DNA of 64,000 nt from Promethearchaeota archaeon (GTDB lineage Archaea > Asgardarchaeota > Lokiarchaeia > Sigyniarchaeales > SOKP01), in contig JBHLLT010000001.1 of NCBI GenBank assembly GCA_048938855.1, positions 384,124-448,123 of the forward strand, written 5' to 3'. The notes under the pieces are model-generated. The model did no database searches. It was given only the letters and a program-made list of their open reading frames with translations, and had not been told where the DNA came from. A program made the translations under genes and the position numbers. This document shows positions 35,359-55,334 of this stretch, one piece after another; position 1 is the first letter of the stretch; every line of letters starts with the position of its first letter.

Positions 35359-35859
35359 TTGAATGATAAATTCAATTTGGAAATTAGAACATATGAGAGG
35401 GAAAAAATGAAGAAATCAAAATTAGAAATTGGATCATTTCTGATACTTTTTATGGGAATGTATACTGCAGTATTGGCATTACTTTGGATATTTGTTACTG
35501 AGATAATGTTTGTAAGTGATTTTGCATATTATACAGGTTTTACATACCAACAATATTTAGCTATTGATCTTGAAGTTGCGCAGATTTACATTATAACAAA
35601 AAAGCTGGTGGGGTGTATCCTTTTAGCTAATGCTATTATGATTGTATTGATAAATCGAAAAAGTTATCGTAAAGCTGAAAAATGGTCTTGGTATGCAATT
35701 CTTATAGGTGGTGGGATATCTTGGTGCACTTTTATCATCTATAAAATTTACATAGGGTATATTGGAGCTAGTATGATAACATTTGTTGTGGGGATTACAC
35801 TTCTCGTGGTTGGTTTAGTTCTTCCTGTGAAAGAAATATTAACTAAAAAAACCGCATAA
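35359..35859 (+). CDS. Four-TM membrane protein of unknown function
   Basis: Hydrophobic segments, YRKAEKWSWY. The likely start is the ATG at 35407, after GAGAGG. Confidence 0.75.
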   Translation: MNDKFNLEIRTYEREKMKKSKLEIGSFLILFMGMYTAVLALLWIFVTEIMFVSDFAYYTGFTYQQYLAIDLEVAQIYIITKKLVGCILLANAIMIVLINRKSYRKAEKWSWYAILIGGGISWCTFIIYKIYIGYIGASMITFVVGITLLVVGLVLPVKEILTKKTA

Positions 35860-35997
35860 ATAACATATAAATTTTTGAGTAAGAAAAAAGTATCAAAGAA
35901 CGCTTAATTTAAAATTGCAAATTATTTTCTTTTTATTGTTTCAAATATCTTATGAGTTAAATTAAACTATAATGAGAATTTAATGAAAATTTTAAGT

Positions 35998-36204
35998 TTA
36001 AGAAAGAACTTCTAATATTTTAGTGAGAATACGAGCTTTGCCCCCTGTGGATTGAAGTAAAGTTTTTCCACAGACTAAACATTCTACATCAGTAGCAGAA
36101 CACCCAAAAATTATTTGTTGGTTTCCACAATTTAAACATTTTACACGTAAAAATCTACTTTTTGGTTGAGGGATAAGGTCCTTTTCTTTTTTTTTATGCA
36201 CCAT
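35998..36204 (-). CDS. rps27e: 30S ribosomal protein S27e
   Basis: [14 protein letters not shown]....C..CG..L...TGGKA. Confidence 0.96.
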
Positions 36205-36259
36205 AATTTTTCAGTTCTTTCATACTTTTTGTAATTCGAGTTGTTTGATTATACCTCAC

Positions 36260-36550
36260 TTATGTTTCAGAGATTTCTAAACGTTTGACTCTATATGATT
36301 TAGCATATTGCTTTTTTCCACATTCAGAGCATTCCAATAAAGGAGTAGATCTCTTATTAATTTTAGCATTCTTGTGAAATATTTCTTTCGGAAATGAGCC
36401 ATATCCTCTCTTTTTTCGTTCAACTCTTCTGCGTCCATGATTTAACATACGTTCTTTACCTTTCTTATACAGAGCCACTGTATGCATTTGATGTGACCGG
36501 CATGTTGGGCAGTATCTTCGTACTGTGCGAGGGTATTTCAAATTTATCAA
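36260..36550 (-). CDS. rpl44e: 50S ribosomal protein L44e
   Basis: YCPTC..H..H.V..YKKGK, GYG, CSECGK. The likely start is the TTG at 36541. Confidence 0.95.
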   Translation of the reverse strand: MINLKYPRTVRRYCPTCRSHQMHTVALYKKGKERMLNHGRRRVERKKRGYGSFPKEIFHKNAKINKRSTPLLECSECGKKQYAKSYRVKRLEISET

Positions 36551-36702
36551 ACCAATTTTATATGATAACCTAAAATAATTATTTATAAATTTTAAATTTT
36601 ATTAGTTCTGGTTAGTTCTTTTTGAAGAGCATCTTTATAATAAAAAATAATTTAAATCTTATTTACATAATGTTAATAAAAACATATTAATTGAGATTAT
36701 AA

Positions 36703-41287: not shown

Positions 41288-41731
41288 TTAACGAAGCGGT
41301 TTCTCTTTCTTCCCTGCTAAAAGAGCGTCCAGGCTTACGCCATTAACTTTTACTACTTTATAACGAACACCTGGGAGATCTCCAATAGAACGTCCTTTTG
41401 CTCCTCCAATTCCTTCCACAATCACTCTATCATGCTCTTCTATGAAATTTAGTGCTCCATCTCCTGGAAGGAATGCCGTTACACCTTTTCCATTCTTTTT
41501 CAATTGCACTCTTACACATTTTCTTATTGCTGAGTTTGGTTGTTTGCTCTCACGTCCAACTTTTTGAAGAACAATACCTAGCGCTTGGCACGATCCTTCT
41601 AAGGGATCTACTCTTTTTTTCAATTGAAGCTTTCTTCTTTTATATTTTGTTTTGGACCATCGAAACTTCTTTCGATTTGTTTGAAGCTTTCGAGCAGCAT
41701 AAAGTCCTTTTGGGCTACCTATATAAAACAC
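41288..41731 (-). CDS. rps12: 30S ribosomal protein S12 (uS12); probable true start ATA at 41722
   Basis: [36 protein letters not shown]. Confidence 0.97.
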
Positions 41732-41813
41732 CTTAATATATTATTTGATAGAACTTAAGTAGTAGAAAAAATGTTTCCTTAAACTTAAAATTTATGTATA
41801 GGTAGAGTTATTT

Positions 41814-42290
41814 TTAGATATTTTTAGTATTAATAATTACATTATCCACTTCAAAATATCTCAGAACTAGTTCTTTTATTTTTCTTATCATGGAGCCGTC
41901 TTTACCAATTGCTTTTCCACGATCTTGAGGTCTAACAGTTATAACAACAGTTTTCTTTAGGTTTCTATTTTCTTTGATTTCAATATTTTGAACCATTATT
42001 GTATTTTTTGTTGTTTGTAAGATATTTTGGATAAATTTATCTAACTTTTCTGAGAAAGCGATGACATCAATCTTCTTTTGGAGTTTAGATTTTAGGTCTT
42101 TAACATGTTCACCAGATTTTCCAATTGCTTTTCCAACATCTTCTTCTTTTACTAAAAAAATAATGATTTCAGAGCCATTTTCAGGAGATTTAAAGATAAG
42201 ACAATCTTTAATGATGGCACCAGAGATATTATTAAATAGGGAAATAAGTTCCATTGCTTCCCTGTCAATTTTTATATTTTTTTTTAACAT
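41814..42290 (-). CDS. nusA: Archaeal NusA
   Basis: Two KH domains (GKAIGKSG, GKAIGKDG) in the rpoA''-L30e-nusA-S12 context. Confidence 0.93.
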   Translation of the reverse strand: MLKKNIKIDREAMELISLFNNISGAIIKDCLIFKSPENGSEIIIFLVKEEDVGKAIGKSGEHVKDLKSKLQKKIDVIAFSEKLDKFIQNILQTTKNTIMVQNIEIKENRNLKKTVVITVRPQDRGKAIGKDGSMIRKIKELVLRYFEVDNVIINTKNI

Positions 42291-42321
42291 GAAAAAATCA
42301 AGTCTCTACTGTTTGTTAATA

Positions 42322-42696
42322 TCATTTAGTTTTTAAAGTAATTAAATCTGAATCTCCAAAATCAATTACTCCTATAATAGAGATCATATAAGGTTTAGCA
42401 CATGCTAAACCTAAATCCCAACTTGAACCTTTATATTTATAAATAAAAAGTTTATCCTTAAGAAGATAATTGTGATTATCTAACTCATTAATCAAATCTG
42501 TTGGACAATTATTGCTGACAATTAACATTTTATAGGGATTTTCTCTTCGTAGACTCTTAAGAACTTGTTCCTTGCCAAAAATAATTTTACCAGTTTTATA
42601 AGCGACTTTGATATTGGTATCTACATCAAATTCTTTCGTTTTTTTCCTACTAAGATCTACTTTCTCAACGGAAGTTTTAGTTTTTCTTTTTGGCAT
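42322..42696 (-). CDS. rpl30e: 50S ribosomal protein L30e
   Basis: KTGK..FG, NNCP, G.S.DLG.ACAKPY, D.GDSD. Confidence 0.93.
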   Translation of the reverse strand: MPKRKTKTSVEKVDLSRKKTKEFDVDTNIKVAYKTGKIIFGKEQVLKSLRRENPYKMLIVSNNCPTDLINELDNHNYLLKDKLFIYKYKGSSWDLGLACAKPYMISIIGVIDFGDSDLITLKTK

Positions 42697-42803
42697 GATA
42701 TATTCAAACAGTTTCTATATAATAAGTAATAAGAACAATACTTTTTTAATTTTTTTAGGCACACTTAAGTTATTTCGTCTTAATTAAAAGTTTTCGATTG
42801 ATT

Positions 42804-44003
42804 TTATTTTTTTTTCTTCTTCCTTAATAAATCTAAATTAGCATCAAGATCAAACATTACATTAACACGGCCAGAACCTATTGGACTAATTTGTCCTACA
42901 ATTACATTTTCGGGAATGCCCAAAAGACGTTCTTCCTCACCATAGAGCCCTGCATCAAGAAGTTGATTGACGGTAACTTCAAAGGCAGCTCGTGCAAAAA
43001 CACTTGATTTTGATCCTGAGATTCCATGTCTTCCAATGGACTGAATTGATCCAGAATAACACATTAGATCAGCTAAGATTAGAAGATGCCTTAGATCTAC
43101 ATCTAATCCTTGTTGTTCAAGCACTTTTTGAGATTCTAATATGATCATTTGACGTGCTGCTTCAATCCCATACAATTTTTCTATTTCATGAATATGGTTT
43201 GAAACAGTTCTAGTTATGTCAACTCCTTCTATTTGAATGACACTTTGCATGTTCGTTCCTTCGGTTTTTATTATCCATTCTTCCCCATCATCTGAGGGTG
43301 TTAATAAACCTCTTTTTACACCTCTTATTCCTTTTACAACTTTCTTAAGAATCTTCTCCCTTAATTTTTGTAAACTTTGTAGATCTTCTATCCCTGGATC
43401 AATAATAATCGAATTTCCTTCGCGTCTTATCGTCCCTTTCTTCTTATAACGCTTTAAAATTTCAGGTATTTCATCAATATCAATTCCCTTTTTTTCACAA
43501 ATTTCAGGGATTAAATTTATAACTATATTCCAATTTACAAAATCTAAATCAATATCATGTATAATTTGTTCTATACGAATTTGCTCAATTCGATTATGTA
43601 CATCAATTGCTTTTTCTTCAGATTCTGAATATGGTTTTTCAAGATATACAGACATTTGTGGGGTACTTGGAAAACGACGCGCATCTACAATCTCAATTAG
43701 TCGAGGTAGTCCTTGGGTAACAGAGAATTCTTCTACTCCTGCATAATGAAAAGTTCTTAGAGTCATTTGGGTTCCAGGTTCACCAATTGATTGTGCTGCA
43801 ACTGTACCAACAGGTTCTGAAGTTTCTACAAGAGCATTATTAAAATTGATATAAATCTTATTTAAAAGGTATTCCAGTTGTTCTTCTTCCAAATCTTCAT
43901 CAATAACTTTATTTCTTATTTTAACAATTAAATCTTCAGGAATACCATCTTGTTTTAGTATTTGTAATTGATCATCTAATAATTTTGGATTAACTTTTAC
44001 CAT
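42804..44003 (-). CDS. rpoA2: RNA polymerase subunit A'' (Rpo1C)
   Basis: [33 protein letters not shown]. Confidence 0.97.
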
Positions 44004-48847: not shown

Positions 48848-49927
48848 CTATTCGAAATATTGTTCAAATAGTTTTATTTCTTCTGAAATTTTTTTTAATT
48901 CTAATAATTCTGCTTCTGTCGGGGGATCTTCTTCATAAATATCATAGAGTTTTAACTTTAGGCTTTTTCTCACTTGCTTTTCTAATTTATTGATCTTTTG
49001 TTTTGTTGCGAAATACTTTATCATTTTAAATTTCAATTTAGTAATTTTTTTCTCCCATTCTTTAGTAAATTCCCCGCTTTGAATTTCTTTTAAAATTGTT
49101 TCGAATTTATTACGAAGGGGGAGTTTCCTAAACCTTATTCCTCTACTCATAGCGCCATATTGACTTGTCTGAGAATGGAAATCTACCTGCTTAACTAGTC
49201 CTACATCTGCCATTTTTTTATATGTATAGGACATTTCATTGCTCATATACATTTCAATTAATACCGCTTCTGGAGGATAACCTGCATCAATTAAAGTATA
49301 AATACTTGATAATAAAACTCTTCCAAAAGCAGGTCCAAACCCTTGTTCATTAAATAAATCTAATTCGGCTTCTTGTTTAAAAGTCAACATTATTGCTCCC
49401 TTTCTTAAAGTTCCAATTCCTTTAGCTAAAGCGAGTAAAATCTGTTTTGCTTGCCCTGAAGCATCTTGATCAATAGCAACAAAACTAAAATAACCTATAT
49501 CTCTCAGAAAGTTCTCTCTAACGCCTACTCCAATCATTCTAGGAGCGATTAATATAATATCTATATCTTCTGGAGGCTTTAGTAAGTCGAAACCAATATT
49601 ATACCCACTAGCAAACACAATTGCGGATTTTGGCTTTAAATTAGGTTTAATATTACTCTCAAATACGTCATTCATTATCTCATCTGGAAGAAGCAAAAAG
49701 ATTATATCAGACTTTTCTGTTGCTTCTTGGATTGTAAAAACAGAAAAATTATCATGTAAAGCTATATTCTTGTATCGATCTTCAACATTCCCTACAATAA
49801 CATTTAACCCTGAATCTCTCAAATTAAGAGCTTGTGCTCTACCTTGGTTTCCATACCCTATGATCCCTATTGTTTTATCTTTCAGTATTGAGAGATCTCC
49901 ATCGTTATCATGAAAAACGTCAACCAT
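48848..49927 (-). CDS. Ketol-acid reductoisomerase (KARI)-family protein, non-canonical
   Basis: GYGNQGRAQALNLRDSG, LLPDE, DLFNEQ. It has APRMIG and SQTSQYG in place of the usual APKGPG and SxTAEYG. Confidence 0.85.
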   Translation of the reverse strand: MVDVFHDNDGDLSILKDKTIGIIGYGNQGRAQALNLRDSGLNVIVGNVEDRYKNIALHDNFSVFTIQEATEKSDIIFLLLPDEIMNDVFESNIKPNLKPKSAIVFASGYNIGFDLLKPPEDIDIILIAPRMIGVGVRENFLRDIGYFSFVAIDQDASGQAKQILLALAKGIGTLRKGAIMLTFKQEAELDLFNEQGFGPAFGRVLLSSIYTLIDAGYPPEAVLIEMYMSNEMSYTYKKMADVGLVKQVDFHSQTSQYGAMSRGIRFRKLPLRNKFETILKEIQSGEFTKEWEKKITKLKFKMIKYFATKQKINKLEKQVRKSLKLKLYDIYEEDPPTEAELLELKKISEEIKLFEQYFE

Positions 49928-49997: not shown

Positions 49998-50606
49998 TTA
50001 TGGTATTTTATCAAAATCTAATTTATTTTTCTCTAATATTTTAACAACAAGGTTTTTAAATACTACGTCAATATTGTAATTTTCTTTTGAAGAAGTTTTA
50101 TAAAAATCCTTCTCATCATGTCTTTCCATGAATCTTTTAACTACTAAATCATCTACTTTAGATTTCTCATCAGCATTTTTCACTAGATCATTCTTAGCTC
50201 CAATACACATTCTTGGAGTGTCTCCATGATTATAATCTCCTAATTTTTCATACCACCAATCTAATCTTAATAATGTTTGAAGATTGATTAGATCAAAAAC
50301 CATAAAAATTCCATTCGCACCATTAATATAATATGGAAACAACTTTTTGAATTGTTCTCGTCCACCAAAATCCCATATACTCAGTCGTACAAAAGAGTCT
50401 TCACCATTAACAATTATAGGTATATCTTTTGTGTAAAATTCGATTCCTAAAGTTTCTTTAGTATTTACATCAAAGGTATCAAAACACAACCTTTTTGCAA
50501 TGCAAGTCTTCCCTACCCGTTCCTGACCTAAAATTGTGATTTTAAAGATATATGATGGCTTTCCTTTAATATTCAACTCAGAAAGAGTATTTATAGGCTC
50601 ATGCAT
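49998..50606 (-). CDS. Rab-like small GTPase
   Basis: GQERVGKT, TLGIEF, WDFGGRE, GAKND, TSSK. Confidence 0.9.
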   Translation of the reverse strand: MHEPINTLSELNIKGKPSYIFKITILGQERVGKTCIAKRLCFDTFDVNTKETLGIEFYTKDIPIIVNGEDSFVRLSIWDFGGREQFKKLFPYYINGANGIFMVFDLINLQTLLRLDWWYEKLGDYNHGDTPRMCIGAKNDLVKNADEKSKVDDLVVKRFMERHDEKDFYKTSSKENYNIDVVFKNLVVKILEKNKLDFDKIP

Positions 50607-51860: not shown

Positions 51861-52538
51861 ATGCAAGTAATAAGTAAATTCGCTACAATTTTAATAAAGT
51901 ATATAATGAATATAGAAAATAAAATGAAACACTTAGACCAGTTAAAAAAAAAGGGAGTGAATGAAATGAGGGAAATTTTAGAAGATTTTACAAGTCCTGA
52001 CAAAATATTTCACCTCTCTATTGTAATGAGTGAAGATATTGAAATTGAGCTATTCAGAAAATGGGTTTCTTCTTTTGGGGAAAGTTACATCAAATCTGTA
52101 GGCGTTGAGCCTTATAGTAAAAATGTAGAAATTGATGGAAAAAACATAAAGTTAGTATTGCGATTATGTTCTTTAGAAGCAAGATTTTTTAGTATTGTTG
52201 AAGGTGTTATGAGAAATTTGCCATTAATTTTACTCTATAATGTCAGCAATAACAAAACTTTAAACAAATTACTTGAGAATCAATTTATCAAAAATCTAAA
52301 ACAAGATGTACCAATTTTATTAGTAGGAAATAAATCAACTTTAGAACAAAATAGAGAGGTTTCAAAAGAACAAATAGAAATGCTAAAAGAACAGTACAAT
52401 ATTTTAGCTTCTATGGAGATATCTTTAAACACAGGAGAAAATGTAGAAGAAATGTTTAGGACAACAGCAAAAATTCTATTGAAAGAATGTGAGGAAAGAA
52501 AGAAAAAAAAGAAAGGAAGAAAGAAAAGAAAGAAATAA
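51861..52538 (+). CDS. Degenerate Ras-like pseudo-GTPase with a polybasic C-terminus (likely start ATG at 51966)
   Basis: SVGVE..SK.VEIDGK.IKL, PILLVGNKS, REVS and EIS..TGENVEEMF are retained; there is no GxxxxGKS/T or DxxG. Confidence 0.75.
   Translation: MQVISKFATILIKYIMNIENKMKHLDQLKKKGVNEMREILEDFTSPDKIFHLSIVMSEDIEIELFRKWVSSFGESYIKSVGVEPYSKNVEIDGKNIKLVLRLCSLEARFFSIVEGVMRNLPLILLYNVSNNKTLNKLLENQFIKNLKQDVPILLVGNKSTLEQNREVSKEQIEMLKEQYNILASMEISLNTGENVEEMFRTTAKILLKECEERKKKKKGRKKRKK
51866..51895 (+). repeat. 30-bp direct repeat, copy 1
   Basis: AGTAATAAGTAAATTCGCTACAATTTTAAT. Confidence 0.85.
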
Positions 52539-53018: not shown

Positions 53019-53225
53019 ATGGCTGCATTTGCATGGAGTCCACTACGGGCTCTAATGAAAAAAGCTGGAGCGGAAATTGTAAGTCGAGCCGCAGTTGATA
53101 AATTAATGGATTATTTAGAAGAATATGCTAAGAGTTTAACTGGTTGTGCGCTTGATATTGCTAAACACTCCGGTAGAAAGAAAGTTACCGCTGCAGATAT
53201 GAAAATCGCTATTGGGTTAATTTAA
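53019..53225 (+). CDS. Archaeal histone (HMf family), tail-less
   Basis: P.RALMKKAGAE.VS..A...L...LEE......A...AKHSGRKKV...D. GGAGG ribosome-binding site upstream. Confidence 0.95.
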   Translation: MAAFAWSPLRALMKKAGAEIVSRAAVDKLMDYLEEYAKSLTGCALDIAKHSGRKKVTAADMKIAIGLI

Positions 53226-53635: not shown

Positions 53636-53874
53636 AAATTACTCAAATAGTAATTATTTTTTTTACATATTTATCCTTTTTCTTTAGAATCGGGACTTTT
53701 GAAGAAAAAGTGATTTTTATATTTGTAAAGGCATATACATTTATGTATAGATTTAGAGATATCACATTCAGTAAAGATGATAAATATAAGAAATAAATTT
53801 TCTACTTCTTCTATTTTATTACAAAATCATCCTACTTAATTGATTTAAATATGGTTTGAAGTGTAATTTTAAAT

Positions 53875-54057
53875 ATGTTGTCAAATATCAAATGTGATAT
53901 ATGTGGAGACTTTTTGAATGCCAATTTTATAAATCGTGAGGGTTGCTCAGAGTGTACACAACACTATTGTTCTAAGTGTGGTTATCAATATGAAACAGGA
54001 TTTAGATATAATTTATTAATCAAACAATTTATTAGATATGTAAGATTCAACCCTTAA
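53875..54057 (+). CDS. Small Cys-rich zinc-ribbon protein
   Basis: CDIC, CSEC and CSKCGY in 60 aa. Confidence 0.45.
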   Translation: MLSNIKCDICGDFLNANFINREGCSECTQHYCSKCGYQYETGFRYNLLIKQFIRYVRFNP

Positions 54058-54088
54058 GTTACTAGTTATTATTTAAAAAAAATAAGGA

Positions 54089-54178
54089 CAATTATAATCC
54101 CAAAAAACCTTTGCTCGGTTGTCCTTAAACGTCTCCTTTTTATACGCTTAATTCATTCTTTATTGGGATTTACAATTA
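54089..54178 (-). promoter_or_regulatory. Eukaryote-type SECIS element
   Basis: AUGA-A-UUAAGCGU-AU-AAAAA-GGAG-ACGUUUAA-G-GA-C, closed by a lower helix UAAUUGUAAAUCCCAA/UUGGGAUUAUAAUUG. Lies at the 3' end of a gene with an in-frame UGA. Confidence 0.75.
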
Positions 54179-54692
54179 ATTTATCAATAACATCAGTCAT
54201 CATTTCAATTGAAGGTCTATCTGTTTTATCATTTCCAATATATTTCCAAACGATCTTCTCATCTTTATTAATTAGAAATTTGCTTGGAACCGCTTGTTTA
54301 ATTTTATAATCTTTTCCTCCTCCAGGTGCGTACCAATAAACATCGTATAATTTTGCTATTTTAGCACCTCTATCAGAAATCATATCAACATGAAAATTGT
54401 TTTCTTCTTTAAATTTACTCAAAAGTCTTACACTGTCGCTTGCAATAGATATTAATTTAATATTTCTTTTTTCAAATTCAGAGATTTTCTCTGTTAACAA
54501 CGCTAAATGTTTTTTACAGTGACTTCACCAATTTCCTCGGAAAAAGTCGATCATAACTCCATCATATGTTTTTAGAAGATCAGTTAGATTTATAGAATTC
54601 TCATAAATATCTTTTGTATCAATTAATGGTGCTGTTGTATTTAGATCCAAACCTTCAGGTCTTGGAGGTTCTTCTGGGTTAGCATTTATCAT
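54153..54692 (-). CDS. Peroxiredoxin-like (AhpC/TSA) selenoprotein, 179 aa, Sec at codon 56 (UxxC)
   Basis: ATG at 54692 ...DFFRGNW-TGA(54525-54527)-SHCKKHL, in frame with track ORF 54153..54500 (SD....A..Y.V, P..FLI....I.W.Y, DRP). Confidence 0.9.
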
Positions 54693-54797
54693 TTGAATAG
54701 CCTTTTTTTAGTGTAAATTAATGAATTTAGCATTTTAAACATATGTCTATTGATAAATAAATAGTTATTTTAAAGTAAGAAGATTTGGTAGAATTTC

Positions 54798-55334
54798 TTA
54801 CTCACTTGAAAACCTATCGAAGAGAATTTCTGTCATTACATTAAAAGTTTTTTCAACATTAGCCCCGGTTTTGGATGAAAGTTCCAAAAAGGATGCTAGA
54901 TTATACTTTTTTGTTGCTAATATCCCTTCCTCTCTGGGGATTACCCTAAATTCATCAAGATCTGCTTTTGAGCCAATTAACATAATCGGAATATCACCTG
55001 TGTGTTCTCTAATCACTTGGGTCCAATCAGGAAGATGATTTAATGATGATTGATTAGTGATGTCATATAAAAAAAGAGCACCATTAGCTCCTTTACAATA
55101 CTGGGAGAGTAAGAATCGAAATCTTTCTTCTCCTCCAAAATCCCATATTTGTAGCTTTACTTTTTTATTATTAAAGGTTGTTGTTTTGGAATAGAAATCT
55201 ACTCCAATTGTTAACTTTAAATCTTCTTGAAAAAACCCCGAAATATATCTTATTGTGAGTGATGTTTTACCCACAGAAGCATCACCTAACATTAGAATTT
55301 TAAACGTATAATCGTATAGTGTCAATTTAATCAA
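54798..55334 (-). CDS. Rab-like small GTPase
   Basis: GDASVGKT, TIGVDF, WDFGGEERF, GSKAD, LSSKTG. Confidence 0.93.
   Translation of the reverse strand: MIKLTLYDYTFKILMLGDASVGKTSLTIRYISGFFQEDLKLTIGVDFYSKTTTFNNKKVKLQIWDFGGEERFRFLLSQYCKGANGALFLYDITNQSSLNHLPDWTQVIREHTGDIPIMLIGSKADLDEFRVIPREEGILATKKYNLASFLELSSKTGANVEKTFNVMTEILFDRFSSE

Follow-up and report, generated by a model that had tools for sequence, protein, structure and literature searches.

A 64,000-nt stretch of DNA from Promethearchaeota archaeon (GCA_048938855.1, JBHLLT010000001.1:384,124-448,123, forward strand), hereafter the window, carries a gene for a Prx-like selenoprotein, prxL, that ends inside its own candidate SECIS element, the UGA stop codon being part of the AUGA of the SECIS core. 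The locus raises the questions of whether this element is a SECIS and of which class, how one UGA of the gene could be read as Sec and another, lying in the element itself, as stop, and whether the overlap is a device that couples recoding to ribosome traffic, as the initial annotation had proposed. From the comparison of sequences, the 3' end of the prxL mRNA very probably forms a functional Lokiarchaeial SECIS (known as lokiSECIS or as a type I eSECIS-like element), with the stop overlap as an evolutionary by-product. Coordinates of the gene and the element are those of the window and refer to the minus strand (Table 1).

The prxL gene and its product

The prxL product matches the Pfam families AhpC-TSA (1.3e-21) and Redoxin (4.4e-14). 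It has the features that define PrxL, namely the AhpC/TSA fold with U-x-x-C (or U-x-x-U) replacing the T/S-x-x-C of true peroxiredoxins: its redox box is W-U-S-H-C (U-x-x-C), within G-N-W-U-S-H-C, and the Cys of His-Cys in this box is the sole Cys of the protein. PrxL proteins with a UxxC box and a single Cys within His-Cys are known in Lokiarchaeota (Mariotti 2016, PMC4989117), and prxL is among the five widespread Asgard selenoprotein families (Huang 2024, PMC11227280).

A protein search found prxL orthologues spanning the UGA in 74 of the 121 genomes of the family, at 73-83% identity. The internal UGA is always present in the prxL copies of those 74 genomes, and the protein is conserved on both sides of it. 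The original assignment of the upstream UGA to Sec and of the UGA of AUGA to the stop of the gene is supported.

The 3' end of prxL reads ...AAU CCC AAU AAA GAA UGA, the A of GAA and the stop together making up AUGA. From the stop to the end of the convergent ORF (54057) there are 96 nt, almost wholly occupied by the element, which leaves no room for a further SECIS. Among the neighbours of prxL, the translations of the ORFs at 54798-55334 (-), 49998-50606 (-), 51861-52538 (+), and 53019-53225 (+) resemble, by eye, Ras/Rab-like small GTPases and a histone-fold protein, which would be typical Asgard gene content.

Architecture of the element

Table 1. The prxL gene and the parts of its SECIS element in the window
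Feature	Coordinates	Strand	Evidence
prxL CDS, Prx-like AhpC/TSA-fold selenoprotein, 179 residues + stop	54153..54692	minus	translation with TGA=U, Pfam
Sec-UGA, codon 56; the AUGA core lies 371 nt downstream	54525..54527	minus	translation; in frame in all orthologues
Lower helix, 5' arm, in the CDS (part of a Leu codon, Ile-Val-Asn-Pro, part of the last Asn codon); conserved core AAAUCCCAA	54163..54178	minus	RNAfold, covariation counts
AUGA of the SECIS core, with the prxL stop UGA at 54155..54153	54153..54156	minus	sequence; invariant in 35/35 aligned elements
Upper stem, 5' arm, 9 positions: A (54152), then UUAAGCGU (54151..54144)	54144..54152	minus	RNAfold, orthologues, RNAalifold
Apical loop AUAAAAAGGAG, 11 nt, A-rich start, AG end	54133..54143	minus	sequence, orthologues; matches the published lokiSECIS loop
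Upper stem, 3' arm: ACGUUUAA (54132..54125), then G (54124)	54124..54132	minus	RNAfold, covariation, RNAalifold
GAC, its GA opposite the GA of AUGA	54121..54123	minus	sequence; GAC in 34/35 elements, AAC in one
Small third hairpin, AACC-GAGCAAA-GGUU, after GAC and ahead of the lower-helix 3' arm	54106..54120	minus	RNAfold, covariation
Lower helix, 3' arm UUGGGAUUAUAAUUG	54089..54103	minus	RNAfold, covariance model, covariation
U8 run straight after the element	54075..54082	minus	sequence; U-rich tail in the consensus of all orthologues

The AUGA, the 8-bp stem, the GGAC, and the stop-codon overlap described by the initial annotation are all present in the sequence. Its spacing of AUGA, 11 nt, and AAAAA is literally true as well, although in the register of the orthologues the A-run starts 9-10 nt after AUGA. 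In the upper stem, UUAAGCGU and ACGUUUAA form eight standard pairs, with an A.G at the stem base. The GA of AUGA and the GA of GAC would form tandem sheared G.A pairs, giving the element a kink-turn-like core.

RNAfold yields the 8-bp upper stem and a 15-bp lower helix that pairs 54178..54163 with 54103..54089, its outer ends being precisely the limits, 54178 and 54089, that the initial annotation gave. Hence, the helix of about 15 bp that had been proposed between the last codons and the 3' UTR does fold in this sequence, but its outer portion is genome-specific, and only the ∼8 bp of AAAUCCCAA/UUGGGAUU are conserved in the orthologues. Archaeal RNA polymerase terminates at oligo-T, and therefore the transcript probably ends at the U8 run that follows the lower helix.

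The folding energy of the single sequence is unremarkable (z = -1.44, that is, 1.4 sd better than shuffles). A lone sequence proves little in this case, and it is the comparative evidence that is decisive.

Conservation and covariation

In the 30 loci compared first, each prxL is followed by AUGA and a 9-position stem closed by an A-rich loop of 11 or 12 nt, with GAC (in one copy AAC) behind the 3' arm of the stem. Most of the orthologue loops end with GAG or UAG. The basal position of the stem is variable and often non-standard in the orthologues, while the other eight pairs covary.

We then used a covariance model, R1, comprised of 34 orthologous elements, with the window's own element left out. 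R1 matched the window at 54178..54083, over its full length, with 73.3 bits and E 6e-17. The only other match in the window, at 49560..49478 (14 bits, E 2), lies inside a 359-aa ORF without UGA and was rejected as a chance match.

In the R1-fitted alignment of 35 elements, 89.6% of the cells were paired, compared with 80.2% in shuffles, and none of 500 shuffles reached the observed values. Both-side changes were seen at 15 of the 21 pairs. When the partners were slid as a control, pairing fell to 26-50%. By helix, both-side changes occurred at five of eight pairs in the lower helix (helix 1; 85% of cells paired) and at three of five pairs in the third hairpin (helix 3; 90% of cells paired).

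To these values should be added a structure-blind MAFFT alignment, on which RNAalifold recovered the 8-bp upper stem, with compensatory changes at seven of its eight pairs, and a part of hairpin 3. The initial annotation had made its reading depend on conservation and covariation of the stem in orthologues, and the stem is both conserved and covarying. The lower helix was not recovered by RNAalifold on this alignment, as small length differences shift its 3' arms out of register. The support for the lower helix comes from the single-sequence folds and from the model-fitted alignment, which leans towards structure; moreover, the Asn-Pro codons could account for some of its conservation in this genus.

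Other SECIS elements and the Sec machinery of the genome

A strict lokiSECIS pattern has nine matches in the 3.95-Mb genome, compared with one or two in reversed or Markov-simulated genomes. All nine, and a tenth element found via the covariance model, lie directly 3' of ORFs with an in-frame UGA. Besides prxL, the genes served by these elements are VhuD-like, HdrA-like, and several encoding small membrane proteins. R1 aligns end to end with the nine other elements, scoring 33-48 bits for eight of them and 18 bits for one that lacks a clear lower helix.

The latter follows an ORF with two adjacent in-frame UGAs (..HADUUADV..) and has no evident lower helix (contig C49 of this genome, G000, position 285288, plus strand; locus L073). 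Contig C70 has three genes of small membrane proteins in tandem (123373, 124290, and 124984, minus strand; L075), each with a single in-frame UGA and a lokiSECIS of its own, and a fourth gene of a similar kind (..NGSCGUGGF..) is found on a separate contig (C66:27732, minus strand; L078). The VhuD-like gene at C20:90910 (plus strand; L072), with two Sec codons, ends on the UGA of its own AUGA and constitutes the second overlap in this genome; in two other VhuD-like genes (C64, C74), the stop is one nucleotide ahead of AUGA.

The genome encodes a tRNA-Sec (61 bits, above the Rfam cut-off) adjoined by SepSecS (464 bits, above the cut-off), as well as an EFSec/SelB-like protein (232 bits) and a PSTK-like kinase (133 bits), both below the curated cut-offs. 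Three of these genes form a cluster within 7 kb on contig C49, with EFSec/SelB-like at 35767-36657 (-), tRNA-Sec at 41348-41436, and SepSecS at 41507-42808. No SBP2-sized ORF with an L7Ae domain was found in the genome, whose L7Ae family comprises just two ORFs, 125 and 130 aa long. The 130-aa ORF, possibly L30e, is located in the window at 42343-42621 (-), ∼12 kb from prxL, and scores 39 bits to PF01248.

The same data bear on the identity of the element. It could be suggested that it is not a SECIS at all but a box C/D-like kink-turn sRNA or a plain terminator hairpin, as the U8 run follows the helix and several C/D snoRNA families give weak Rfam matches, the best with 24.8 bits and E 0.88, below the gathering score. 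We consider this extremely improbable. All the C/D matches are far under their gathering scores, and the C/D snoRNA identity was rejected because the Rfam matches are sub-threshold only. Elements of this type occur in the genome only after ORFs with an in-frame UGA and are present after every prxL orthologue, and a terminator role of the U-run is compatible with a SECIS and hence is no true rival to it. The Rfam scan of 53800..54800, with E up to 10, found no SECIS family either, RF00031 included; likewise, eukaryotic SECIS tools found nothing on the Lokiarchaeota elements (Mariotti 2016, PMC4989117).

Origin of the stop-codon overlap

We surveyed the stops of 75 PrxL genes from 70 loci. The pattern AUGA-9-10/11/12-9-[G/A]A was found near the stop in at least 70 of the 75 genes, and within 23 nt of it in all but one; for five genes, this simple pattern yielded no match. 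Among the 70 genes with a pattern-detected SECIS, 30 have UAA 5 nt before AUGA (UAA-NNA-UGA), which puts the core UGA in frame one codon later. About 30 terminate 13-23 nt ahead of AUGA, immediately 5' of the AAUCCC in the lower helix. Only in five, this window and four other genomes, is the stop the UGA of AUGA itself.

In the maximum likelihood protein tree, the five overlap cases are separate tips, so that a change is required for each. Well-supported sisters with UAA at -5 are L043 for L008 and L041 for L040. The sister of L050, with weak support, has its UAA 16 nt upstream; for L001 and L004 there is no single sister. The window has AAA at the codon where these relatives with the -5 stop have UAA. 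A single substitution, UAA to AAA, therefore adds two codons, Lys-Glu, and passes termination to the invariant UGA. The usual stop of the genus, UAA 5 nt ahead of AUGA, would thus be backed by a second, built-in stop one codon on, to which the frame would run in this genome once the first was lost.

The stop precedes the lower-helix arm in the outlying clades and in the second genus (L020, L023, L029, L042-L049). This suggests that the CDS crept over the SECIS by two successive stop losses, the order of which assumes a midpoint root, and that the last of these steps was recurrent, having occurred at least five times, and was not retained. The AAUCCC (in the region 54161-54172, minus strand) encodes the C-terminal Asn-Pro in this genus, whereas in the sister genus it is non-coding and lies just past the stop. 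In this genus, it seems to be the conserved RNA helix that determines the C-terminal Asn-Pro.

Overall, the overlap looks like a near-neutral by-product of an invariant in-frame UGA behind the stop rather than a conserved regulatory design. Its occurrence at tips only means that it has not been retained over time; a local effect on expression in this organism may exist. Overlaps of this kind have been observed before: the element can overlap the CDS, and the AUGA of VhuU.1 doubles as the stop codon (Mariotti 2016, PMC4989117); UGA stops of Lokiarchaeial selenoprotein genes often overlap AUGA (Huang 2024, PMC11227280). Hence, the type of element, the gene family, and the AUGA/stop overlap were all already published in 2016 and 2024.

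Recoding, termination, and ribosome traffic

We infer the following course of decoding, in which the kink-turn geometry, the binding of factors, and melting by the ribosome would each take part. The folded element would present the kink-turn-like AUGA/GA core, the 9-position upper stem, and the A-rich 11-nt loop, and would recruit the Sec elongation factor with Sec-tRNA(Sec), either directly or via an adaptor. The UGA at codon 56, 371 nt upstream, would then be read as Sec. By the time the terminal UGA reaches the A site, the element would already be melted, and this UGA would be read as stop.

The terminal UGA could, in principle, be recoded as well or read through, producing a C-terminal Sec or an extension of 27 codons to the next UAA. 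The organism decodes Sec, and the frame is indeed open for 27 further codons, but the SECIS should not be able to fold while a ribosome sits on its core, and the same minimal-distance argument has been used to explain why nearby UGAs are read as stop (Mariotti 2016, PMC4989117). Moreover, the orthologues terminate upstream, at UAA or UAG, and what is conserved downstream is the pairing of RNA helices, with compensatory changes, rather than the codons. Recoding or readthrough at this position is very improbable, and the C-terminal Sec was rejected given the stop positions of the orthologues and the RNA-type conservation downstream.

The remaining proposal is that the overlap has been selected, each terminating ribosome melting the SECIS and ribosome traffic thereby tuning recoding at UGA56. 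It is true that the stop lies within the core and that the last codons take part in the lower helix, and a ribosome positioned at the core stop would have to have opened the element. The overlap also recurs, in five PrxL genes, in the VhuD-like gene of this genome, and, in the literature, in VhuU.1 (PMC4989117). However, such recurrence is expected regardless of selection, given that this genus has an invariant AUGA whose UGA is in frame, and the five PrxL overlaps are independent tips, none of them kept in a clade.

The mRNA channel of the ribosome extends about a dozen nucleotides beyond the A site. In the 30 relatives that stop 5 nt earlier and the approximately 30 that stop 13-23 nt earlier, the terminating ribosome would therefore probably unfold both the lower helix and a large part of the core. 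Judging by the size of the ribosome footprint, melting of the SECIS at termination probably takes place in nearly all these genes, and any coupling to traffic would be a property of the class, not of the overlap. Unwinding of the SECIS by the terminating ribosome is a reasonable part of the initial annotation, although it is probably not special to the overlap. Its other part, the overlap as a compact device coupling recoding to ribosome traffic, is not supported: the overlap is seen in five of the 70 PrxL genes, on separate tips, and in this genome the single substitution UAA to AAA explains it. All in all, selection of the overlap for such tuning is improbable, and we retain the by-product of the invariant in-frame UGA as the preferred reading.

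A third hairpin

The third hairpin, typically AACCUUGUGAGGGUU (of the ACC...GGU type), is present in the elements of all PrxL orthologues, L002-L030 included. Of the ten SECIS elements of the genome (the loci other than prxL being L072-L078), nine have it in the RNAfold prediction, and in the tenth an ACC...GGU stem can be recognized by eye. Given its position between GAC and the lower helix, the element is a three-way junction. The hairpin is not mentioned in the texts of Mariotti 2016 and Huang 2024, to which the comparison extended; it may be the only new feature here.

A parallel is the k-junction, with a k-turn core, a third helix in the non-bulged strand, and coaxial C and T helices (Wang 2014, PMC4005666), whose topology the element resembles at the level of secondary structure. 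Still, the loop of the 5' (bulged) strand is ∼8 nt in our case, compared with 3-4 nt in the k-junction, and the likeness is one of secondary structure only; we treat it as a possible lead, not as membership. One could speculate that the Lokiarchaeial SECIS is not the two-helix, eukaryote-like hairpin of the published models but a three-way junction of k-junction topology in which the third helix would let EFSec or L7Ae/L30e read it without SBP2, while melting at termination would make Sec insertion sensitive to load across the class. We regard this combination as unlikely, if somewhat less so than the alternatives considered above.

With the record as published, the locus adds little, and the observation is real but ordinary. 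What is added is a comparative picture of how the overlap originated, with two stop losses and the in-frame core UGA as a back-stop; the C-terminal Asn-Pro of the genus, encoded by an RNA helix that the sister genus leaves non-coding; and a third hairpin conserved in all these elements. If confirmed as undescribed, this hairpin would matter for search models and reporters for Asgard SECIS and would bear on how SECIS elements were read before SBP2 existed.

Comparison with known SECIS classes

In the lokiSECIS as published, AUGA leads directly into a stem of 9 bp; the loop has 11 nt, the first five mostly A and the last one G, usually after A; and GA or AA follows the stem (Mariotti 2016, PMC4989117). 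The assignment of our element to this class follows from the match in every one of these features. The AUGA (54156..54153) directly precedes the stem; the 9-bp stem is represented by eight standard pairs and the basal A.G; the loop has 11 nt, with A at four of the first five positions, and ends with AG; and the stem is followed by the GA of GAC (54123..54121). Its setting is also that of the class: the gene whose end it occupies carries an in-frame UGA, and Sec machinery is encoded in the genome (tRNA-Sec and SepSecS above the cut-offs, EFSec- and PSTK-like proteins below them). As in the elements of Mariotti 2016, it is found at the very end of the CDS, in the same Prx-like UxxC family. It differs from them in that the overlap is in prxL of another genome, the first stem position is A.G, and the loop starts with AUAAA instead of AAAAA.

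The type I eSECIS-like model for Asgard archaea accommodates the element as well; it calls for a GA_[G/A]A core, 7-15 bp in the upper stem, and 8-20 nt in the loop (Huang 2024, PMC11227280). This model is comprised of the core, the upper stem, and the loop only; the text mentions an internal loop and a lower stem, and no third hairpin.

With the eukaryotic type I SECIS (RF00031, bound by SBP2 and L30), the element shares the AUGA/GA quartet, unpaired adenines in the loop, the lower helix, and a 3' site acting at a distance. By contrast, its upper stem, with 9 positions, is not as long, a third hairpin is inserted on the 3' side of the internal loop, and the element touches or overlaps the CDS, in a genome in which no SBP2-like protein was found; SBP2 was undetected in the earlier study as well (Mariotti 2016, PMC4989117). 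From the euryarchaeal (methanogen) SECIS it differs in having neither the GAA_A bulge nor three consecutive G-C pairs in UUAAGCGU/ACGUUUAA, and it gives no match to that class in Rfam. The initial annotation was right in calling the element eukaryote-type as opposed to methanogen-type, as the core of AUGA, A-rich loop, and GA is present and the GAA_A architecture is absent; eukaryote-like is the published description of this class of SECIS.

Bacterial SECIS lie directly 3' of the Sec codon, within the CDS, and are bound by SelB. SECIS elements that function within an ORF are described also for eukaryotic and fowlpox genes (Mix 2007, PMC1802603). The bacterial and the in-ORF eukaryotic and viral elements provide precedents for a SECIS that is unwound by each translating ribosome and yet is functional. 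Those are hairpins of the bacterial SelB type or full eukaryotic SECIS elements, while in prxL the CDS holds only one arm of the lower helix and the AUGA.
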